The notes under the pieces: generated by a model
Database searches by the model: none
Seen by the model: the letters and a program-made list of their open reading frames with translations, nothing else
What the model was told of the DNA's origin: nothing
IMG/VR virus record: IMGVR_UViG_2534681899_000005
Strand: one strand, 5' to 3'
Source: a virus
Taxonomy: Duplodnaviria; Heunggongvirae; Uroviricota; Caudoviricetes
DNA length: 13,486 nucleotides
Shown: positions 344-13,486 of the stretch, piece after piece
Layout: each line of letters opens with the position of its first letter
Position numbering within the stretch: position 1 is the stretch's first letter
Translations under genes and position numbers: made by a program

Positions 344-541
344 TAACCTGTAAAGAATTTTCACACCTGTGTGTTTATACAGTCATACTCTCCTGTTTTG
401 CAGTCATTGCACCCATGATACACAGCCCCTAACCTGTCAAAATATTTTACTACCCCACCAATAATACGGCCCATACCTGTAAAATATTTTTACTACTACC
501 TGTCAAAATCTTTTACTACTACCTGTAAAAATATTTGACAC
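344..541. repeat. Iteron array: five direct 22-24-bp repeats, three contiguous; candidate replication origin
   Basis: Copies at 344-366, 430-453, 474-496, 497-519 and 520-541 share the core ACCTGT[A/C]AAAAT(A/C)TTTTACTAC; AT-rich context. Confidence 0.7.
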
Positions 542-1109
542 TAATAGATAAAGTAATAGACCACACAATAAATCCCCCCTAACCCCCCCAGGGGGAATGG
601 GGAGGGATCAGAGAGTGGGGAAGGTTTTCTAAGGGAAAAGCTTAACCCACAAATGAAAGCCTAAAGAGCATTAGTGACTCTTTAGGCAATCTGTGTGTGG
701 GTCACTCTGTGACTTTAGCTATACAGCTAAACCGACTACATCGGCCTGTGTGTGGGGTGACAATGTATTCCATACATGACACGTCACCCAATTGTGTGTG
801 GTCCGGCGAATGCGTCAGCATGAGGCCCACATGTGGACCGCTGCCGAAAGCTTGCCAGCGCCGGAAGGAGGCAGCAAAGAGTCTCCCGCGCTCATGTGTG
901 GGCGTATACGTAAGATATACATTCATAAATCCAATTCTAGGCACCTAAATGGCCTTCTGGCTGCATTAACCTGTGTGAGTAGTGCAATTGCATTACCTGA
1001 CCTCTAAATCGCGTTAGAATCGATTTTAGAGCGCTTAAGGCAAAAAGTGCCCTCCCTCCCTTGTGGGCTTGCTTGTACCTATAGCACACCTAAATGATAA
1101 TAATTCTCA

Positions 1110-1454: not shown

Positions 1455-1664
1455 ATGGCTAAAACCGGACCGATAAGCCAGCTTGTAAACTGGACTACTG
1501 ACGAAATCGTCGAGAACGTGCTTAAAGGTAACTTTCGAAAAACTTCCGTTTATGCATTTATTCGTAAACACAAAGGAGAATATCCACACATTGAAGCGGC
1601 AATAGAAAAACTTAACTTTATCCGTATTGAGCGTGAGCTGGAAAGATATAAACATCTACTTTGA
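1455..1664 (+). CDS. Small (69 aa) putative DNA-binding regulator
   Basis: ATG preceded by AGGAGA RBS; stop overlaps the TTG at 1661 of the next gene; basic, with an HTH-like segment (TTDEIVENVLKGNFRKTSVYAFIRKH). Family not recognised. Confidence 0.5.
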   Translation: MAKTGPISQLVNWTTDEIVENVLKGNFRKTSVYAFIRKHKGEYPHIEAAIEKLNFIRIERELERYKHLL

Positions 1665-1684
1665 TAAATAATTGTGAGGGAATT

Positions 1685-2590
1685 ATGGCAAACAATAAAC
1701 TGGGGGCACATTTCACCCCAATTTTTAAACGTTTCATCAAGTATAATTTTGAAAATCCAATTGCAAAAACTACAACAGGCAAAGAGAGATTTAATTTAAA
1801 TGCGACGGAATTGATAATTTACGGGGAAATGGTTGGCTTTCATTTAAACGGCAACGAAATATTCATCTCGGAGCAGACCTTAGCAGATGATTGGGATTTT
1901 TCAAGACCAACGATTATTAAAGCTATTAAATCTCTAGTAAATGCTGGGATTATTTCTAAAGATAACCGGAAAGGCAAATCTAACATTTACAAACTGTTAA
2001 TTACACCTGAGCAGTTTGATAAAATGTGCGATGAGCAGGGTATTAAAACCTTAGACAGTGTGGGAGACAGCAAAGAGGCACCTGCTACACAGGCCCAAGA
2101 TAATCAACAGGAAGCCCCAAAAAAAGCCGCACAGCAAGCTAAAAAGGCTAAAGTAGTGCAATTGCCTACCCAAGACACTAAAGCGCCTCAAATTAACGCT
2201 GTTAGTGACAAGCCACGCCGGGGCCGTCCTGTGAAAGATGCAACAGATGGAGGCTGGATCGCCCTGGGTGAGAGTGAGGCTAAAGGCATAATGCGATCAC
2301 TGTGGGAAAGCAAATACAAAGATTTAAACAAACGTCGCCCGATCCTTTTGTCAAAGATTCAGGAGGATTTTTACACCGCAGAAGAGGTAAGCCAACATAA
2401 AGGGAAAAGAGAGGGTGAAATCTGGAAACCGGAAGAATACTGGCATTTAACCAGACCTGTGTTTATTTTTGCAAATAAGCTTATTGGGATGGGATTTGAA
2501 ATATTGTTAGATAAAACCTGCGGAGATTATCCCGAAATATTGTGGAGAAATGTTAGAAAAAATAAAAAAGGCATTTTAGAGTTTAAATAA
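1685..2590 (+). CDS. Putative replication initiator / replisome-organiser-like protein (winged helix plus AT-hook)
   Basis: ATG 1685 with GAGGGA RBS (the track uses in-frame TTG 1661). N-terminal winged-helix-like region (..FISEQTLADDWDFSRPTIIKAIKSLVNAGIISKD..), P/Q/A/K-rich linker with AT-hook KPRRGRPVK, C-terminal domain. Iteron array lies about 1.1 kb upstream. Confidence 0.45.
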   Translation: MANNKLGAHFTPIFKRFIKYNFENPIAKTTTGKERFNLNATELIIYGEMVGFHLNGNEIFISEQTLADDWDFSRPTIIKAIKSLVNAGIISKDNRKGKSNIYKLLITPEQFDKMCDEQGIKTLDSVGDSKEAPATQAQDNQQEAPKKAAQQAKKAKVVQLPTQDTKAPQINAVSDKPRRGRPVKDATDGGWIALGESEAKGIMRSLWESKYKDLNKRRPILLSKIQEDFYTAEEVSQHKGKREGEIWKPEEYWHLTRPVFIFANKLIGMGFEILLDKTCGDYPEILWRNVRKNKKGILEFK

Positions 2591-2785: not shown

Positions 2786-2889
2786 TTAATATCCCCTGTT
2801 ATCCCCAAATAAACTAAATAAACTAATTACATATAGAACTAGAACTAGATTGATTTCTCTTTAATGTTAAATTGACTGGAGAATTAATC

Positions 2890-3375
2890 ATGTTCAAATC
2901 TGATCTTTCTGATTCCCAATTTGAAAAACTGGTAGCACTGCAGAAATATCTTCCCAGTGATGATCAACCAACACGACAGGCCAAACACTTATTAGTCGAG
3001 GGCTTTACCCCTGAATTCGTGGCGGAATATACAGGCGTTAAACTTGAGAAAGTCCAAAAACTATATAATGAATCCTGGAATCCACGGTGTCGAGTTCCCC
3101 TCAGTGTCTATAACGACACAGACAGAGATAGAAATGTCTTCGAAGATCGCCGCCGCAAATCTCTTTTAATGTGGAATTGCGGGATGAATATTGAAGAGAT
3201 AGCAAAAGAATTAAAAGTAACCTGCTTTCATATCTGGGGTTTGTTGAGTGAAATCCTGCCACGTAAGGAGCTTAATCAACGTTTGCCTAAGCCCGGTAGT
3301 CGTGCTTATCGCGAATTTATATTCATCTACCGCCGCCATAGCAATAAAGTCCGGAAAGCAATGCAGCGCAAATAG
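2890..3375 (+). CDS. Hypothetical DNA-binding protein with two HTH-like segments (161 aa)
   Basis: ATG 2890 with TGGAGA RBS (the track ORF starts at TTG 2872). Segments GFTPEFVAEYTGVKLEKVQKLY and GMNIEEIAKELKVTCFHIWGLL resemble resolvase or sigma-region-4 type HTH; basic C-terminus. Confidence 0.5.
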   Translation: MFKSDLSDSQFEKLVALQKYLPSDDQPTRQAKHLLVEGFTPEFVAEYTGVKLEKVQKLYNESWNPRCRVPLSVYNDTDRDRNVFEDRRRKSLLMWNCGMNIEEIAKELKVTCFHIWGLLSEILPRKELNQRLPKPGSRAYREFIFIYRRHSNKVRKAMQRK

Positions 3376-3433: not shown

Positions 3434-3907
3434 ATGGCTCATATAAATTTTAAGGAATTCCAAATGTCTCAAATCGCTAAATTATTATCCCAGGTTATCA
3501 AAGCTATCGACGCTGAAGATTCAAAAGTTCGCCAGGATCTTTTAGATGGCAAGTTTACCAACACCCTGGCATTTACCCGTGACAAAGAGCACTTCTTAAA
3601 GCACAGACATCACGCTTTCGCTGAATGCAAGTCCGCTAATGGTGATGTTTTCTATGTCGATTTGGTGGTTATGGCATGCCGGTTGTGGATGATTCAGGAC
3701 CTTATGCGCCAACACGGTGATGATCCTCTTATCAGCATGTGGAACAGCGCCCAGGATGGCTTTGTGATTGCTGCCTTATCTAAATCCATGATTGAGGCAG
3801 AAGGCGCAAGCCTTCAGAACATGGCAGATCTCTTTGAAATAAGCGTAGGAATGATGCAGACCATGCTGCAGGCGGTGAAGCCTCTCAAACTGGTTAATCT
3901 TGATTAA
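3434..3907 (+). CDS. Hypothetical protein (157 aa; alternative start ATG 3464)
   Basis: Long ORF co-directional with neighbours; ATG 3464 has a TAAGGAA RBS; no recognisable motifs. Confidence 0.5.
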   Translation: MAHINFKEFQMSQIAKLLSQVIKAIDAEDSKVRQDLLDGKFTNTLAFTRDKEHFLKHRHHAFAECKSANGDVFYVDLVVMACRLWMIQDLMRQHGDDPLISMWNSAQDGFVIAALSKSMIEAEGASLQNMADLFEISVGMMQTMLQAVKPLKLVNLD

Positions 3908-3922
3908 ACTATTGATAAATAA

Positions 3923-3947
3923 GCACTCCCCATTTTTTGGGGGGTGC
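3923..3947. other. Intergenic GC hairpin (GCACTCCCC-ATTTTTT-GGGGGGTGC)
   Basis: 9-bp stem with one G.T pair and a T-rich loop, between the 157-aa and 129-aa genes; no downstream U-tract on the plus strand. Confidence 0.4.
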
Positions 3948-3961
3948 ATCAATGAGAGGAT

Positions 3962-4351
3962 ATGCCTATGAATATTGAAGAAATGATAGTTGAATTCGAA
4001 GAGGGTGATTTCCTGGAGGATGGGGAGTTTAGTTACTCCCGTTTTAAACAGGCGTTATTTAGCAGCGAGGATAAACCACACGTTAGTGATCTTAACGACG
4101 ATGATTTATGTCGCTGGGTATGCACCCGCTTATATGAGGATGGAAAATATACAGGCCAAAACTTTCCAAATCTCTATTTCAAAGCACAAACATTTGAGGA
4201 AGGGCAAAGAGTGAAAAACCTGGTCGATAAAATGCTTTCAGCCGGATATTTGCATAAAGAATTATTAAATCCTAAAGCTGAAAGCAAGCGCCATTATATT
4301 TTTGTGTGGACTATTGGCGATAAGTGTCCACTAAGACGCAAAGGAAAATGA
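3962..4351 (+). CDS. Hypothetical acidic protein (129 aa; probable start ATG 3968)
   Basis: GAGAGGA RBS upstream; sits two genes before the tape-measure-like gene, so a tail-assembly-chaperone-like role is possible but unproven. Confidence 0.5.
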   Translation: MPMNIEEMIVEFEEGDFLEDGEFSYSRFKQALFSSEDKPHVSDLNDDDLCRWVCTRLYEDGKYTGQNFPNLYFKAQTFEEGQRVKNLVDKMLSAGYLHKELLNPKAESKRHYIFVWTIGDKCPLRRKGK

Positions 4352-4352
4352 T

Positions 4353-4589
4353 ATGAATACCTACGAAAAGATTTATCAAAAACTGGTTAAGGACTCCGAA
4401 GAGACGCACGAAGGGGTGACAGTAGGTCACCTGCCAGAGGCAGCGAAAGAGGGGGCCACCATTATTAAAAGTTGCTCCCACACAGAAGGCCTCTCAATCG
4501 AAGAGCTTGCGGAGAAATATAATATTGATAAAGAGGCCCTGAAAAGGGCTATTTCATTATCAAAATCTTTAAGACAGGGCGAGGTGTAA
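4353..4589 (+). CDS. Hypothetical protein (78 aa)
   Basis: ATG 1 nt after the preceding stop, AAGGA RBS; stop 3 nt before the tape-measure-like ATG, so tightly coupled. Confidence 0.5.
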   Translation: MNTYEKIYQKLVKDSEETHEGVTVGHLPEAAKEGATIIKSCSHTEGLSIEELAEKYNIDKEALKRAISLSKSLRQGEV

Positions 4590-4592
4590 GAG

Positions 4593-6719
4593 ATGGCAAT
4601 GAAGGAAGTCGCCAGACTAACAAACGTTATTTACTGGGATTCTGATAAATCCAGCTGGCGAAAAGAAGTTAAACGGCTTGAGGATTATAAAAAATCCTGG
4701 AAGAAAGCCACCGACGATATAGCTAAAGCGGATTTTAAATCGAATCAGGCTGTGCTCAGAACACAAAGAACACGCGCTAAGGTGGAAGAGCAGATTGCCA
4801 GAGCACAGAAGAAACAACGTGCTCAGGCTGTCAGCCGTCTGACCGGGGGCAATAATCCGGAGCTCTCCTCTATGCGCAAGTTCTACCAACAACAAGCCAG
4901 AGAAGCCGCCAGACAACAAAAACTGTTAGATCGTAGTGTTGGAGATGTTCAGCACAGAAAAGCACGTGTAGGGGCCAACAGTGCACGAATCAGCAGCATG
5001 TTTGATGGCTCCCTGGTTGCTCAGTTCCAATCCAGAATTCAGAGAGTTAATGCTGATTATGCTAAAGGGGCTATTAACCTGCAGACCTATAATCAGAAAA
5101 TGGCCCGACTCAGAGCTGAAATGAAGATGGCAACAGCAGAGGCCGGAAAATTTCAGAGCAGACTAGACAAAGCTGCGGTAGCAGGATCTAAGCTGCATGA
5201 CAACCTGGGGAAACTCAACTCCACACTTGGCAAGATAGCTATTGGCCTTACTGCCGCTGGCTGGGGTGTTCAGCGTGCTGTTAGTGGTGCTATGGGTAGC
5301 CTTGCAGATCGCAACAGTGCCTACTTCGGTTTGATGGCACAGAACAAGGATGATAAAGCCAAGACTGATCAGCAGATGGCTTTTATCAAGAACACAGCCT
5401 ACACCTACGGGATGGATGAGCGGGAGATGCAAGGTGGCTACATGCGCTTTGCTGCAGCTACCCCCACCATGAAGGAATCTGATAAGCAGGCTCTTTTTGA
5501 GGCTATGGCTATTAAAGGTCGCTCAGTGGGTGCTACTGGCGAGCAACAGAACAGGGCGCTTGTTGCGGTCCAACAAATGGCTTCAAAGGGAAAAGTTATG
5601 GCAGAAGAGCTGCGGGGCCAACTGTCAGAAGCCTTTGCAGGCTCACAACAGGATTTTCAACAGGCCGCTATTGATGCCGGAATCATCAAGAATGCCCAGG
5701 AATTCGATAAAGCCCTTAAAGATGGCAAAATCACCCTGGATAAGCTTCTCCCTTCTTTGGTGAAAATCTGGGGTGCTGCAAAAGAAACTAAAGCTTTTGC
5801 TGAATCCATGAAACAGCCAGAAGTAGCAATGCAGCGCATGAAAAACAGCTTTAACGAGCTGGCGATCCAGTTTATGGGTGTTGTAGATCCTGCAGATGGC
5901 GTTATTAGCTTATCTGAATCTCTGATCTCCATCTTCGAAGACCTCACTACTGATATGGACGGCAGCGGGAGCGCGGCAAAACAGTTTGGTGAGGCAGTCG
6001 GTGCTGCCATGCGGGAGATCATGTATTGGGTAGGCTTCGCTAAGGGATATATTGAGGTCAAGGCTAAAGAGTTCGGCATGACCGGATCAGAGGTTGGCGA
6101 GCTTATCGGGAAACTGGTAGTCGGCTTAGCTGGTCTGAAAGTTATTACCACACTGCTTTCCCCTCTAACCGGATTTGTTTCACTTGTCACCCAACTGATT
6201 TCTCTGATAGGCAAGATTCCAGGTCTGGGCAATCTCGTTAAGGGTGCAGGTGGTGCAGTCGCTGGAAGCCCAACAACAGCATTAGCCGCTGGCAGTGCCG
6301 CAGGTGTGGGTGTTGGTGTCGCTGGCGCACTGGGCGCTAAGACGGTAGGTGAGAAGTTCAGAGGATGGATGCAAAGCAAGGCTGATCAGTTCGGGGAGTG
6401 GGCTAAATCTAAAGGCCTGCTTAGCGATGAACAGGACGCTATGACCAAACCGGGGGCCTATAACCATAGCTACATCAACAAGGGAGCTTCTTTTAATCCA
6501 TATCCAACCATTAGCCCATCACGTCCTACTCCTAGCACTGGTACGGCTATTCAGAATGGTGGCTATCAACCTGCTCAGGTTAATGTGGTGCCTCAAGGTG
6601 AGATTTCCGGCAAATGGGAGATAACCATCGATGAGGGGGGAATTGCCAGGGTGATTCAGAAGGAAGTCAGCGATCAGTTGGATTGGAAAGCCACACAGGA
6701 ATCTAATCAGCTTTTCTAA
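4593..6719 (+). CDS. Phage tail tape-measure-like protein (708 aa)
   Basis: GAGGTG RBS then ATG 4593. N-terminal about 200 aa is Q/R/A/K-rich and coiled-coil-like; central ..GATGEQQNRALVAVQQMASKGKVMAEELRGQLSEAFAG.. resembles the conserved tape-measure core; C-terminal Gly/Ala-rich hydrophobic segments; no Walker A or catalytic motif seen. Confidence 0.6.
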   Translation: MAMKEVARLTNVIYWDSDKSSWRKEVKRLEDYKKSWKKATDDIAKADFKSNQAVLRTQRTRAKVEEQIARAQKKQRAQAVSRLTGGNNPELSSMRKFYQQQAREAARQQKLLDRSVGDVQHRKARVGANSARISSMFDGSLVAQFQSRIQRVNADYAKGAINLQTYNQKMARLRAEMKMATAEAGKFQSRLDKAAVAGSKLHDNLGKLNSTLGKIAIGLTAAGWGVQRAVSGAMGSLADRNSAYFGLMAQNKDDKAKTDQQMAFIKNTAYTYGMDEREMQGGYMRFAAATPTMKESDKQALFEAMAIKGRSVGATGEQQNRALVAVQQMASKGKVMAEELRGQLSEAFAGSQQDFQQAAIDAGIIKNAQEFDKALKDGKITLDKLLPSLVKIWGAAKETKAFAESMKQPEVAMQRMKNSFNELAIQFMGVVDPADGVISLSESLISIFEDLTTDMDGSGSAAKQFGEAVGAAMREIMYWVGFAKGYIEVKAKEFGMTGSEVGELIGKLVVGLAGLKVITTLLSPLTGFVSLVTQLISLIGKIPGLGNLVKGAGGAVAGSPTTALAAGSAAGVGVGVAGALGAKTVGEKFRGWMQSKADQFGEWAKSKGLLSDEQDAMTKPGAYNHSYINKGASFNPYPTISPSRPTPSTGTAIQNGGYQPAQVNVVPQGEISGKWEITIDEGGIARVIQKEVSDQLDWKATQESNQLF

Positions 6720-6792
6720 TGCTGGAAGATAGCGCAGCTTTACTGATATTGTGATCAAAATCAATAAGTTAGCCCGACCGGATAAACTCCAG

Positions 6793-6828
6793 GCAAGAAA
6801 AAAGCCCCTAAGTGTTAACAAAGGGGCT
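6793..6828 (-). terminator. Intrinsic terminator, clearest on the minus strand (possibly bidirectional)
   Basis: Stem AGCCCCT (6803-6809) / AGGGGCT (6822-6828) with a 12-nt loop. On the minus strand it is followed by TTTTTTCTT (complement of 6793-6802); on the plus strand only by CTCTTCTCC. Confidence 0.5.
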
Positions 6829-6849
6829 CTTCTCCGGTATCCTTTTGAT

Positions 6850-6964
6850 GCGGGGCGAACCTGCTAACAAAAATCAACCTCTCGCGAGACTAATGTTAGC
6901 AGGTTGCCGGAAGGTAAGTCAACTCCGGCCTATAAACCTTAAAGCGACTATAAAATCGCCCCGC
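6850..6964. other. Highly structured element with nested perfect inverted repeats (candidate structured RNA or protein-binding site)
   Basis: 9-bp outer stem GCGGGGCGA (6850-6858) / TCGCCCCGC (6956-6964) encloses a 10-bp stem CCTGCTAACA (6860-6869) / TGTTAGCAGG (6895-6904), whose loop holds the palindrome TCTCGCGAGA, plus hairpin GCCGGA / TCCGGC (6906-6929). Confidence 0.4.
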
Positions 6965-7246
6965 CAATTGTGATGATCCGACCTTTGAGGCGGGTCCGGT
7001 GCCCAGGGGGTGCAGTGATGCACAAACCAGGCAACGATAAACAGGCTAACAGTGATAGCGGCGCTCAATCAGCGCACTAAATCCTAACCAGTCCGGGAAA
7101 GAGGCTGGCTCTATCGACCGCTCATGCACGGGACAATGCATACCTGATAAAGGATTCTCACAAGGGACCAATCGCGAGAAAAGAAGTGGAAAGGGGCTGA
7201 TTTGTGGTGTATCACTACGGCCTCAAAAGAACACTATTGTCTTTTT

Positions 7247-7705
7247 TCAGCCTCTCCCCACATTTGACCAGTATTTGATTGCACCGATCAAATCATCATA
7301 GTGGCGCATTGCATCATTGAAGCCTTTATAGCTTGCCCATTGTGGGGAAACCTTGTTATTGCTGAATTGCCCACTAATCAGGATAGTCTCCAAAATGTCG
7401 GCGTATCGCTTGCCAATTCGCTTTCTGACGGCCTCAGAGCTCCCACCCTTTACGATTGCATTAATCAGGGCTTTTGTGTGTCTCAGGCTCTCATAGAGCA
7501 TTGCAGCGTGGGCAGATTCCATAAAGGAGCGCTTAGGCAGATCACCCCACCCCTCAGAATGAATTGCTGCCAGTGTGGCGTAATTCAGGCCGCTATAGTG
7601 TTTCCCGTCATCCCAGCCAACCGCTACACCTTCCATCTGTGAGAGCTCTTTATGCAGCTTATCCATCATGCGCTTGTCTATGGTGCAACGGACTTTCGGA
7701 CTCAT
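7247..7705 (-). CDS. Phage virion morphogenesis / head-tail joining protein (HK97 gp10 / Mu G-like), 152 aa
   Basis: Start overlaps the upstream stop by ATGA (7702-7705); motif ..NYATLAAIHSEGWGDLPKRSFMES.. resembles the Y-A-x-H-x-x-G...P-x-R-x-F signature of this family, recalled from memory. Confidence 0.4.
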   Translation of the reverse strand: MSPKVRCTIDKRMMDKLHKELSQMEGVAVGWDDGKHYSGLNYATLAAIHSEGWGDLPKRSFMESAHAAMLYESLRHTKALINAIVKGGSSEAVRKRIGKRYADILETILISGQFSNNKVSPQWASYKGFNDAMRHYDDLIGAIKYWSNVGRG

Positions 7706-8514
7706 TTGTTGATCTCCGTGATGTCATCGAGCAACATGTTGGCCTTATCAATCATCGTTTCGTGGAACTCATTCGACACAACAGACTTATCACCTGCGGC
7801 AATCTTTCCCGCTGCCTCTCCCTGTGCATATTCCCCGCGATGCTTAGCCCTGGTTGATTTCGTAGCAGCGTTGCCAGCGTTGCTACCCTCTTTAGCACTG
7901 TTAACAGCGCCCTTTTGCTGTGTTTTATTCACCTTCTTACTGTTAGTGAAAACTCCGGCATTTTCGACCATCTTCACCTTGAAGGTGCGGAATTCTTCAA
8001 AAGTGCAATCAATAGTGATGCAGTCACCAGAGGAAGAGCTACGCTTAACTTCACATTTCGTCATGATGAAGTTCTCAAGGAGTCCGGCATCTTCACTTAC
8101 CAGGCTAACTAGCTGGCGCTTGTCTCTCATTTCCATAAGTGCCTGAACAGCGGCAGCAGGGCGCATAGATTCACGGGGATTATCTGGATCAGTGTTCCGG
8201 TCGATGTAGTTCTCTTTCCGGATGATATGAGGGGAAGAGGTAATAATGCCCGTAAAGCTGACAGATTTATCTTTAATGACGGCATGGTCTGACATGGTGG
8301 TGCCATCCTCGACCGCATAGCTCGATTTCTCGACAGGGAACGAATAGCTGACATCAGAGATTGAGTCAAAGAAGATAGCCACGTTATCGGTATAGTTGAA
8401 GCCATCCATTATATTTTTGTTTTGTGAATATCCCCCACACATAACAGTGAATGCAGGAGATCTCGATTCAGCTTGTTTTGCAGCTGTCAGAGCATCACTA
8501 GCCATATTAAACAT
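7702..8514 (-). CDS. Hypothetical protein, possibly phage structural (270 aa)
   Basis: Long ORF in the capsid operon, translationally coupled to the next gene; C-terminal half is low-complexity K/A/G/N-rich; no family recognised. Confidence 0.45.
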   Translation of the reverse strand: MFNMASDALTAAKQAESRSPAFTVMCGGYSQNKNIMDGFNYTDNVAIFFDSISDVSYSFPVEKSSYAVEDGTTMSDHAVIKDKSVSFTGIITSSPHIIRKENYIDRNTDPDNPRESMRPAAAVQALMEMRDKRQLVSLVSEDAGLLENFIMTKCEVKRSSSSGDCITIDCTFEEFRTFKVKMVENAGVFTNSKKVNKTQQKGAVNSAKEGSNAGNAATKSTRAKHRGEYAQGEAAGKIAAGDKSVVSNEFHETMIDKANMLLDDITEINK

Positions 8515-8862: not shown

Positions 8863-8975
8863 AAAAGACACCTCAAAAACTTAAGACGGGGATAATAAAA
8901 AAGGGAAGAGGGAAAGACCTATCCCCGATCTCTCACCTCTTCCCTTTGCTTTTATTTGGCCTTCGAAGAAGGACC

Positions 8976-10022
8976 TTATTTAGCCTTGGCTTTTGCCAGA
9001 GCAGCGGCGGCGGAGTTACTAACACTCACTTTAACCACAACTTCAGGCATCATGTTCATGAAAGCATAAGAGGATTCAATGAAGATTTCTCGTTTACCTC
9101 TGGACTCTTCCATATACATGAAAGCTTCACGTGCAGCGCCGTTTGCAAGCTTCAGGTTGCGAGCGCAAGGGCCGAAAAATTGAGTATAAACGCCCACCAT
9201 ATCGCCTAACGCATGCGGCTGGAACTGTGGGACCAGATAAGCAGTATTCTCTGGCAGACTATCCATTTGCACCACACGCAGAGCTAAGCCTGGAATGCGG
9301 AAAGTCGGGAAGCCCGGCAGAATATCCTCAGGGAACATCAGACCTTTATCGGTAATATTCTGATTGCCGAACAACAGCACTTTTCGCAACAGTTCATCAG
9401 TCTGAATTGCAGCAAAGAGTTCAGCACGGCAGAACAGGGTGAAACCACGCAGAGCACGAACGACACCACGCTGTTTAACCTTGCTCAGTGCAACCAGGTC
9501 CTGCAGTTGTTTGAGGATGTCTTGAGCTAGATCCACTTCAGAGGTGGACTGTTCCACGCCCAGCAGTTCGCACACATTCAGTTCTTTACCCTTGGTGAGG
9601 ATAATTTTGTTCTCAAAGAGAGCAAGCTGGCGTGCTTCTTCGTGGGTCTGGCGTAAGCCTTCACCCAACTGAATAACACGACGAGCGGTTACAGACTCTA
9701 AATTCTCTTCGGAATCTTTGCCCGGAACACGGATACCTTGCCAGTCAGAAGGATAAATAGCACTTGATGCGGCAGTGAATGCCATATCACCCGTGCCCGT
9801 TTCACGCTCATCTGCGGTAATGGTAGCCATCTGTTCACCGTAGCGCGGATACTGACCGAAAGCGGATTGTTTCACCTGGCGAACTTTGTCATATTCAAAT
9901 TTAAAGGTATTGCACAGAGCAGTAGTGTTGAAGATATCCATTGCTGAAATAATCTGGTTATCCAGCGGGATATCTTTAATCAGACCACACAGATCGCGAA
10001 CTTCGAATTCTTTCTTAGCCAT
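8976..10022 (-). CDS. Putative major capsid protein, lambda gpE-like (348 aa)
   Basis: ATG (complement of 10020-10022) with AAGGAGG RBS 6 nt upstream; the track ORF starts at in-frame TTG. Size and C-terminal segment (..KREIFIESSYAFMNMMPEVVVKV..) resemble lambda E-family capsid proteins as recalled; follows a ~110-aa gene as in lambda D-E. Not searched. Confidence 0.45.
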   Translation of the reverse strand: MAKKEFEVRDLCGLIKDIPLDNQIISAMDIFNTTALCNTFKFEYDKVRQVKQSAFGQYPRYGEQMATITADERETGTGDMAFTAASSAIYPSDWQGIRVPGKDSEENLESVTARRVIQLGEGLRQTHEEARQLALFENKIILTKGKELNVCELLGVEQSTSEVDLAQDILKQLQDLVALSKVKQRGVVRALRGFTLFCRAELFAAIQTDELLRKVLLFGNQNITDKGLMFPEDILPGFPTFRIPGLALRVVQMDSLPENTAYLVPQFQPHALGDMVGVYTQFFGPCARNLKLANGAAREAFMYMEESRGKREIFIESSYAFMNMMPEVVVKVSVSNSAAAALAKAKAK

Positions 10023-10033
10023 TTTCAACCTCC

Positions 10034-10701: not shown

Positions 10702-10850
10702 ATAACTAGCCCAATAGGAGAATTAATCGACCACTCAACGATGATCAGGGTAGTGTTATTTATAAGGCGGCACCGCTACCTGGTCGCCTTTACTTTGGAG
10801 GAAAATACGGCAAATCAAGATCTTCTCAAATGATATTGATTCCATACTAT

Positions 10851-10870
10851 ACTGTATATTATATCAGTAT
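10851..10870. promoter_or_regulatory. LexA-box-like palindrome (SOS operator candidate)
   Basis: Minus strand reads TACTGATATAATATACAGTA, which keeps CTG-N10-CAG with an AT-rich spacer (consensus TACTGTATATATATACAGTA); overlaps the -10 of the capsid-operon promoter. Confidence 0.5.
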
Positions 10871-10887
10871 TCTCTCAAATTGTCAAC
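10859..10887 (-). promoter_or_regulatory. Consensus sigma70 promoter for the leftward capsid operon (TTGACA-17-TATAAT)
   Basis: Minus strand reads gtgTTGACAatttgagagaatactgaTATAATat: -35 at 10882-10887, -10 at 10859-10864, exact 17-bp spacer. Confidence 0.6.
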
Positions 10888-13099: not shown

Positions 13100-13127
13100 A
13101 GTGTAGATAAGATCTATTATGTTAAAT
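13100..13127 (+). promoter_or_regulatory. Candidate Xer recombination site (dif/psi-like)
   Basis: AGTGTAGATAA-GATCTA-TTATGTTAAAT: right arm is identical to the E. coli dif XerD arm as recalled; 6-bp centre resembles pSC101 psi (GATCCA); left arm is degenerate versus GGTGCGCATAA (5 of 11). Confidence 0.35.
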
Positions 13128-13391: not shown

Positions 13392-13486
13392 TTGGTGTGA
13401 ACAGTCTTTCATGTTCTTTATGTATCAGTTGTCCTGTGTGGTGATTTGGTGGACTGCCCCAGGGGCCATACTTATGATGCCCGGTC
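13392..13486. repeat. Right copy of 95-bp terminal direct repeat
   Basis: Exact match to 1-95 on the same strand. Confidence 0.9.

Follow-up and report, generated by a model that had tools for sequence, protein, structure and literature searches.

A conserved structured RNA of about 430 nucleotides predicted between the convergent operons of a small Escherichia coli plasmid with phage capsid genes

The DNA analyzed here (hereafter, the window) is a stretch of 13,486 nt recorded in IMG/VR as the Caudoviricetes virus IMGVR_UViG_2534681899_000005. It is a circularly assembled contig in which positions 1–95 are identical to positions 13392–13486 (95 bp), giving a true element length of 13,391 bp, and the element is an Escherichia coli plasmid of ~13.4 kb. 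Two operons converge on it: the plus-strand operon ends with the gene for a tape-measure protein (TMP), and the minus-strand operon encodes the major capsid protein (MCP), a Dit-like protein and a neck protein. The spacer between them, bounded by the stops of TMP (6719) and the neck gene (7247–7249), measures 527 bp. An earlier note on this DNA, written from the letters alone, had described in the spacer a hairpin terminator with its U-tract on the minus strand and, upstream of it, a 115-nt nested inverted repeat with perfect stems of 9, 10 and 6 bp. Both are present, at 6803–6828 and 6850–6964, respectively, except that the third stem has five Watson–Crick pairs and its sixth pair is a G·U on the minus strand. 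The 115-nt element is real, but it is the 3′ third only of a conserved unit that fills the spacer to ~7224–7246. It is highly probable that the spacer encodes one long structured non-coding RNA on the minus strand, which ends at the intrinsic terminator (Table 1).

The terminator stem is formed by AGCCCCT (6803–6809) and AGGGGCT (6822–6828), and the A-run at 6798–6803 reads as a U-tract (U6) on the minus strand. This hairpin has the features of a rho-independent terminator; it is 100% paired in 16 of the 16 sequence variants described below and carries a compensatory U–A to C–G change at the top of its stem. A simple terminator scanner missed it because its loop is long (~12 nt). Folding of the minus-strand RNA spanning 6785–7250 gave −168.8 kcal/mol (z = −4.5), and 0 of 100 shuffled sequences were as stable, so that the structure exceeds what chance would give. 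At the other end, the 5′ boundary of the RNA lies 22 nt past the neck-gene stop codon. The leader module in between is also found in three related loci (L162, L167 and L173), there with better stems, and all lineages conserve AGACAAUA within it; a leaky terminator and a 5′ hairpin of the RNA are both possible readings of the module. Some variants possess a second, upstream copy of the 5′ module (GAGGCCG...) with a clean A-tract, hairpin and U-tract after it (L162, 1620–1680; L173, 2200–2271), a duplication that suggests recombination at the 5′ boundary.

Relatives were reached through the neck protein, which led to a second E. coli lineage of 14–15-kb elements (loci L002, L160–L164 and L171–L173); the clusters to which the neck protein and MCP belong contain 155–441 members. 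Their neck protein and MCP are 50% and 51% identical, respectively, to those of the window, and the synteny is the same, with the neck gene followed by ~570 bp of non-coding DNA and a convergent tape-measure gene. This non-coding DNA aligns to the minus strand of the window from ~7246 to the terminator, and the sequence beyond the terminator is not conserved between the clades. The alignment contains long invariant blocks (UUAUCAGGUAUGCA, UGCAUGAGCGG, CUCUUUCCCGGA, GUUAGGAU, GCCUGUUUAUC, ACCCGCCUCAAAGGUC, UUUAUAGUCG and CGCGAGAGGUU), and the segments between them differ yet stay complementary. All column pairs of an alignment of 16 distinct variants (A6) were scanned for stacks that are complementary in both clades, and the helices were taken from this covariation scan because RNAalifold, applied to the 16-sequence alignment, gave an unstable 5′ domain. 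Pairing was possible in 95–96% of the cells (95.1% in the main scoring), compared with 35–44% (35–42% in the main scoring) when the partners were slid by 1–3 columns. Similarly, 20 pairs were changed on both sides, compared with 2–5 in the slid controls, and 0 of 500 shuffles reached the observed pairing values. In the two-clade complementarity test only antiparallel column stacks passed, and the parallel-orientation control gave 0. The earlier note had named unconserved stems and a lack of covariation as results that would refute its reading; we found the opposite, since distant relatives preserve each of the three stems through compensatory changes.

The RNA is laid out in two domains. The upstream domain is closed by the long-range helix P1 and contains the core, peripheral hairpins and a candidate pseudoknot helix (PK), while the nested repeat forms the 3′ domain. 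P1 occurs in three sequence versions (UAGUGAU/AUCACUG, UGAUGGU/ACCAUCG and UAGUGGU/ACCACUA), across which P1b is 100% paired and 3 pairs are changed on both sides. The P4 stem reads CCAG/CUGG, CAAG/CUUG, UUAU/AUAA or CUAU/AUAG, and the first of these was independently converted to the second by a double change inside the E. coli type (L168). In PK, 6 of the 10 pairs are changed on both sides between the clades; this helix was recovered by the antiparallel scan, and the parallel control recovered none. The peripheral hairpins P5 and P6 are missing from L002 and L162, and P5 is GCGC/GCGC in the window and GUGC/GCAC in L160 and L171. The L160-type RNA (L160, 3587–4041) has an extra hairpin inserted in the peripheral region; a 17-mer from this hairpin recurs at 10727–10743, in a gene-poor part of the same element (E = 0.004), and may be a small repeated or mobile hairpin. 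In the 3′ domain, P8 has 4 pairs changed on both sides as well as G–C to G·U changes inside the E. coli type, P10 occurs as CCGG/CCGG, CCGC/GCGG, CCUGC/GCAGG and CCUG/CAGG, and P11 shows a C–G to U–A change. The palindrome TCTCGCGAGA, around which the earlier note had arranged the stems, is present at 6880–6889 but is not conserved, other lineages reading CCACGCGAGA. GAGAGG (6878–6883), in the loop of P11, is complementary to CCUCUU (7099–7104) in the loop of P4. This pairing is 100% in the 16 variants, with one pairing-preserving C-to-U change, and from these sequences a loop–loop contact joining the two domains is possible.

Some strands have more than one potential partner. The local hairpin that the P1 5′ strand can form has a predicted energy of −13 to −17 kcal/mol in four lineage types and −5 kcal/mol in the window type, and the P1 duplex has one of −14 to −18 kcal/mol. 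Where the P1 5′ strand has undergone an A to G change (L173 compared with L160 and L171), its local and distal partners both change along with it, and a folding pathway or a conformational switch is a plausible reading of these co-changes. The PK 3′ strand is also able to pair with the P8 5′ strand, and none of the alternative pairings involves the terminator in all clades. Two further candidates were rejected. An antiterminator, in which the P8 3′ strand (GCCCC) competes for the terminator (GGGGC), was ruled out by the L002 clade, which has UAUCAGC at this place, and a sarcin–ricin-like motif in CGCGAGAGG was ruled out by inspection, only the C-GAGA-GG segment (CGAGAGG) being shared.

Table 1. 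Positions of the RNA, its parts and other features of the window
Feature	Positions	Strand	Remarks
Conserved structured non-coding RNA	6799–7224	−	426 nt in the window (~430 nt); from GAGGCCGU to the terminator U-tract
Leader	7225–7246	−	A-tract, weak hairpin, U-tract (AAAAAGACAAUAGUGUUCUUUU); directly after the neck stop codon
Intrinsic terminator	6798–6832	−	Stem GAAGAGCCCCU/AGGGGCUUUUU and U-tract; RNA 3′ end; read from sequence
P1 5′ strand	7211–7223	−	AGGC and GUAGUGAU; can also form a local 5′ hairpin with 7193–7201
P1 3′ strand	7043–7056	−	AUCACUGU ... GCCU; covariation and antiparallel scans
Near-invariant core	7081–7150	−	70 nt; UUAUCAGG, P3, GAGCGG, P4, then GUUAGGAU; invariant alignment columns
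P3 core hairpin	7123–7142	−	UAUGCA/UGCAUG; invariant
P4 core hairpin	7086–7110	−	Invariant loop CCUCUUUCCCGGA; stem covaries
PK 5′ strand (candidate pseudoknot helix)	7152–7161	−	GUGAGAAUCC; partner 6970–6979 (RNA positions 64–73 with 246–255)
PK 3′ strand	6970–6979	−	GGAUCAUCAC; covariation and antiparallel scans
P5 peripheral hairpin	7061–7075	−	Variable by lineage
P6/P6a peripheral hairpins	7001–7032	−	Variable by lineage
Joining sequence between P5 and P6	7036–7046	−	GCCUGUUUAUC; conserved
P7 short hairpin	6980–6996	−	GACC/GGUC; invariant loop CGCCUCAAA
3′ domain (115-nt nested repeat)	6850–6964	−	P8 closing P10 and P11
P8 closing helix	6850–6858/6956–6964	−	GCGGGGCGA/TCGCCCCGC; 9 bp
P11 hairpin	6860–6869/6894–6903	−	CCTGCTAACA/TGTTAGCAGG; 10 bp
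P10 hairpin	6907–6912/6923–6928	−	CCGGA(A)/(C)TCCGG; helix 6924–6928/6907–6911, loop UUGACUUA
P11 loop	6876–6886	−	CGCGAGAGGUU; invariant; overlaps the palindrome 6880–6889
Candidate internal σ70 promoter	6893–6922	−	−35 TTGACT 6917–6922; TG-extended −10 TGCTAACAT 6893–6901
Perfect consensus σ70 promoter	10858–10886	−	TTGACA-17-TATAAT, TG, 12/12; heads the capsid, Dit and neck operon
RepO/DnaD-like initiator gene (rep)	1661–2590	+	
TMP gene	4593–6719	+	Convergent to the RNA; stop 79 nt from the RNA 3′ end
Neck/tail-completion gene (phrog_222)	7247–7705	−	Directly upstream of the RNA; stop codon 7247–7249
Dit-like protein gene	7702–8514	−	
MCP gene	8976–10028	−	
Four tandem ~22-bp repeats	432–542		ACCTGTCAAAATATTTTACTAC; upstream of rep; probably iterons of the replication origin
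Xer-like (dif/psi-like) candidate	13100–13127		AGTGTAGATAA-GATCTA-TTATGTTAAAT; XerD arm perfect; gene-poor stretch; possible multimer-resolution site

Three G·U pairs are invariant (G7·U265, U133·G153 and G167·U189), and several substitutions interconvert Watson–Crick and G·U pairs, as in the changes at P8 mentioned above. Because these pairs would become A·C mismatches on the plus strand, the RNA is assigned to the minus strand, where every lineage also has the U-tract. Covariation, the strand-specific G·U pairs and the conserved terminator thus strongly support one of the candidates of the earlier note, a structured 3′ untranslated region (UTR) of the capsid operon or an RNA from it, with its end near 6795. 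This RNA is likely to be transcribed together with the capsid, Dit and neck genes, forming the final ~450 nt of a transcript that would start from the σ70 promoter at 10886–10858. A near-consensus σ70 promoter (11/12, with TG) lies on the plus strand at 1301–1329. Both promoters are located inside a 54-nt inverted repeat (1287–1340/10847–10900), and this arrangement of one inverted-repeat promoter per convergent operon suggests a shared operator and co-regulation.

Judged by sequence identity, the RNA is the best-conserved segment of the whole element. Between L003 and the window it is 96.7% identical, compared with 85% for the neck gene, 83% for TMP, 72% for MCP and 66% for Dit. Between L160 and the window, 73% of the RNA is alignable compared with 13–45% of the genes, making the RNA the sole largely alignable segment. 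In L001 it is 99% identical to that of the window, whereas the rep gene is not homologous. Searches using nhmmer found one copy of the RNA per element and none elsewhere among the loci examined. Since the RNA is the most conserved part while the proteins are ~50% identical and the replication modules are exchanged, these comparisons suggest that the indispensable shared function of the element family is the RNA and not any protein.

The element was found in 7 of 5,426 complete E. coli genomes, each time as a plasmid of 13.3–13.7 kb and in one case as a 39.6-kb trimer; the carrier strains, among them E. coli 190 (NZ_CP020521), E275a and RM10740, came from humans, cattle, pig and chicken on several continents. 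The larger form (NZ_CP043822.1; 39,610 bp) is a head-to-tail trimer of a 13.2-kb element and could be either a true multimer or concatemer or a long-read assembly artefact. PLSDB/MOB-suite typing classified these plasmids as non-mobilizable. The neck and tape-measure proteins show 26–49% identity to proteins of 140–150-kb Vequintavirinae and phiTE-like myophages, and no terminase, portal or sheath was detected among the open reading frames (ORFs) and proteins of the window. Capsid, Dit-like, neck and tape-measure genes related to those of Vequintavirinae/phiTE-like (rV5-like) myophages make it probable that the family represents a so far undescribed satellite-plasmid of such phages in E. coli; our literature search found no description of these E. 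coli plasmids or of the RNA. The initiator modules of the window (1661–2590) and L001 (10592–11503, annotated as MarR family) are non-homologous in plasmids that are otherwise ~95% identical, a comparison that indicates modular exchange of replicons. Besides rep and TMP, the plus strand contains small ORFs. In the regions 2872–3375 and 3434–4589, weak matches to σ70 region 4 and helix–turn–helix domains were seen in the ORF heading the tape-measure gene group, and three small ORFs preceding TMP match the tube and chaperone genes of large phages in position, with no detectable similarity to them. On the minus strand, an inverted repeat with 20-nt arms (85% complementary) at 8892–8955, which separates the capsid gene from the gene after it in the operon, may be an internal attenuator or processing site.

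The RNA represents a large structured RNA family not known before, and the role given to it below is read from its sequence. The whole window gave 0 matches at the gathering threshold to Rfam 15 (4,227 models, including GOLLD, ROOL, OLE, HEARO, raiA, C4, pRNA, 6S, riboswitches and ribozymes). The best sub-threshold matches were terminator look-alikes (ctRNA_p42d, 23.6 bits vs 50; Thr_leader, 21.7 vs 55), and the L173 variant had the same outcome at gathering and permissive thresholds. Neither the spacer nor the whole window had a blastn match among 50,697 phage records, and nhmmer found no copy of the RNA in the complete genome of a phage of the helper type, LTH01 (Vequintavirinae). In IMG/VR, three RNA-motif pattern scans and scans based on the neck protein and the MCP alignment gave chance matches or none. 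A scan of GTDB species representatives gave 25 chance matches in unrelated metagenome-assembled genomes, 0 of which were confirmed by nhmmer, and a scan of JGI metagenomes yielded two further E. coli-type elements and one chance match. Four neck-protein relatives (P0024, P0025, P0027 and P0033) were ruled out as satellite lineages by their large-phage gene order and the absence of the RNA; in large phages the neck gene is directly followed by the next structural gene, with no such RNA. A search for antisense targets in the element and in LTH01 returned only chance-level 12–13-mers.

Known kinds of site were rejected one by one. An iteron replication origin was ruled out, as there are no direct repeats in 6720–7246 and the iterons lie at 432–542. 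The recombination site proposed by the earlier note found no counterpart here either: no Xer (cer/dif/psi-like) site matched in the region with up to 3 mismatches (XerC arm, 6–8-bp spacer, XerD arm TTATGTTAAAT), and the candidate is located at 13100–13127 instead. Its transfer or nicking origin is contradicted by the non-mobilizable type of the plasmids and by the absence of a relaxase among the ORFs of the element, the nic motif itself not having been searched for. A riboswitch or attenuator was ruled out because the RNA is 3′ of its operon and is followed on that strand only by antisense TMP.

Several points weigh against our interpretation. The diversity in the alignment amounts to two clades plus recombinant mosaics, all from E. 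coli, so that many cells share ancestry and covarying events are few, and the structure was partly derived from the same sequences that were used for scoring. The local 5′ hairpin is an alternative to P1, and PK both crosses P1 and competes with another local hairpin (7155–7180); more than one fold is therefore compatible with the sequences. The minimum free energies of the two strands are inconsistent, the sense strand being more stable in the window and L003 and the antisense strand in L160 and L173. The case for transcription is built from the promoter, the terminator and strand-specific pairing, and a folded single-stranded DNA (ssDNA) form of the same strand would be compatible with the sequence alone, as opposed to which the element carries an iteron/initiator replicon and no rolling-circle or relaxase genes. 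Finally, no catalytic signature, partner or target was found for the RNA, and a mode of action as a folded trans-acting or ribonucleoprotein-forming RNA, which we advance tentatively, is argued from anatomy and analogy.

The alternative that survives best is that the structure works in cis within the 3′ UTR, as an mRNA stabilizer or retroregulator of the λ sib kind or as an insulator between the convergent operons, with no function as a free RNA. Its position at the 3′ end of the operon, with a strong terminator that comes within 79 nt of the convergent TMP stop, fits such a role, as does the lack of a clear promoter of its own upstream, and the weak terminator-like hairpin ahead of the RNA is compatible with regulated read-through. 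However, a stabilizer or terminator needs far less than the ~430 nt found here, with their invariant core of 70 nt, long-range helices and conserved loops. In addition, the RNA is more conserved than the genes it would serve, and conservation between the clades does not extend past the terminator. We consider a purely cis-acting role rather unlikely.

The internal promoter-like site, with its −35 in the P10 loop and its TG-extended −10 in the P11 5′ strand, may give rise to a short RNA of ~90 nt starting near CGCGAGAGG. Such a product would be an Hfq/ProQ-type small RNA (sRNA), with CGCGAGAGGUU as its 5′ seed and the terminator as its 3′ handle, directed at host, helper or element mRNAs. The site was found independently at the homologous place in L160 (TTGACT-16-TAGTAT with TG), the two clades differing only at weakly constrained −10 positions, and the short product is predicted to have an invariant 5′ end and to close with a strong terminator and a U-tail. 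However, its start lies downstream of the 5′ strands of P8, P10 and P11, which covary with their 3′ strands, an argument that the longer RNA is under selection, and the conserved 5′ two-thirds would be left unexplained. Moreover, the −35 is weaker in L171 and L173 (TAGACT), the promoter consensus scan gave 3 sites where 2.0 were expected, so that the internal site alone is not above chance, and the search of the element and LTH01 for complementary targets gave none. That the conserved unit serves only to produce this short sRNA is improbable.

A site acting at the DNA level, such as a helper-derived pac or cos, a single-strand initiation site or ssDNA origin, or a recombination or nicking site, is very unlikely. 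Pairing-preserving compensatory changes that include G·U are not expected of a duplex protein-binding site, and a terminator with its U-tract frames the region in every lineage, even though the spacer is better conserved than any other non-coding DNA of this probable satellite (compare cos in P4-type satellites), its structure is strand-specific as in ssDNA origins, and a trimeric assembly exists. The spacer has no similarity to the complete Vequintavirinae genome of LTH01, taken as representative of helper-type phages; the iterons and the Xer-like site are elsewhere, and neither a relaxase nor a rolling-circle Rep accompanies the non-mobilizable type assigned in PLSDB. Finally, small ORFs or a remnant of head-closure or tail-terminator genes can be dismissed. 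ORFs of 41–70 codons are present, an assembly pipeline annotated a 75-aa gene across the copy in L002, and the neck gene is followed by coding genes in large relatives. However, no variant agrees with another in the strand, position and length of its longest ORFs, the indel lengths (1, 2 and 4 nt) are not divisible by three, a tblastn search with helper proteins (HCP, tail terminator, sheath, tube and TAC) gave no match in the region, and conservation is higher than that of real genes.

Turning to how the structured RNA might work, we put forward as a possibility, without giving it our full weight, that it acts through its folded shape and not through long antisense pairing or as a DNA site. 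The invariant loops and junctions carried on covarying helices and the possible CCUCUU–GAGAGG contact suggest a compact tertiary fold. Its conserved binding partner, engaged in the late, phage-related phase, would be a factor of the host or of the helper phage, or further copies of the RNA; since the RNA is constant while all of the proteins diverge, the partner is suggested to be a conserved component of host or helper, or else the RNA. Taken as a whole, the explanation that combines the structured RNA with this mode of action seems to us reasonably probable. A bolder version, which we hold to be speculative and on balance doubtful, is that the RNA is the functional heart of a so far undescribed class of E. 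coli satellite-plasmids and has a biochemical role of its own, as a ribozyme, an RNA-only assembly or a recruiter of host or helper-phage machinery for hijacking, packaging or particle assembly. Such a role would explain why the RNA is near-invariant while replication and structural genes are swapped and diverge.

To our knowledge, new structured RNAs of >400 nt are rare, and most of those known are found in organisms that are hard to manipulate. Here the host is the genetically tractable E. coli, and a 13-kb plasmid can be cloned, mutated and challenged with phage. If the RNA has its own biochemical role, it joins OLE, GOLLD, ROOL and raiA among the few large bacterial RNA classes without an assigned function, and if the elements are true satellites of rV5-like myophages, it could uncover a stage of the satellite–helper conflict that depends on RNA. 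Even a regulatory RNA would define a new RNA family and provide a marker for finding such elements.

Among known systems, the nearest published concept for the element is that of the Vibrio phage-inducible satellite-plasmids (PISP/cf-PISP), which are 11–16 kb long and combine phage capsid genes with plasmid replication functions (PMC13230959). The likeness concerns context only, namely a small capsid-gene plasmid, the PISP capsid belonging to PF03864 as in L002. PISPs have been reported from Vibrio only, carry no tail genes and come with no described RNA, whereas the E. coli elements, which are putative satellites, encode TMP, Dit-like and neck proteins.

For the RNA itself, λ sib and other 3′ retroregulators and bidirectional terminators share the placing of a 3′-terminal structured element between convergent transcription units; they are single hairpins of ~50 nt, whereas this RNA is roughly ten times larger and has an invariant core. 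Enterobacterial sRNAs derived from 3′ UTRs (CpxQ, SroC, MicL and DapZ) are 50–150 nt long, use a short seed and are conserved only over the last ~100 nt. The RNA resembles them in its location at an operon 3′ end, the shared operon terminator and the possible internal promoter, and differs in that its whole 430 nt are conserved and structured. Compared with base-pairing sRNAs of the Hfq/ProQ type in general, it has the terminator and U-tail and, in two clades, a promoter-like site, with no target complementarity beyond chance. The mRNAs of the hok family reportedly show coupled covariations that maintain alternative local and long-range pairings (Gultyaev, Franch and Gerdes). The parallel is one of folding logic only, in that one strand is complementary to a local hairpin and to a long-range partner across lineages; there is neither a toxin ORF nor an antisense sok-like gene here. 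The P4 CI RNA and the c4 RNAs of P1 and P7 offer a precedent for a non-coding RNA as the key conserved function of a phage-dependent element, but these are antisense regulators of ~70–80 nt with defined targets, whereas this RNA is ~430 nt long, with no target found and no match to the Rfam C4 model.

GOLLD and ROOL are large ornate RNAs of phages and prophages that form RNA-only multimers, as seen by cryo-electron microscopy (bioRxiv 10.1101/2024.12.08.627333). The present RNA does not match their covariance models, does not lie beside tRNA genes and is found on a 13-kb plasmid in Enterobacteria. It shares with them a length of >400 nt, phage-related carriers, many helices, conserved loops and junctions, variable peripheral hairpins and candidate long-range and loop–loop contacts. 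By analogy of kind, it would be closest to these large ornate phage-associated RNAs.

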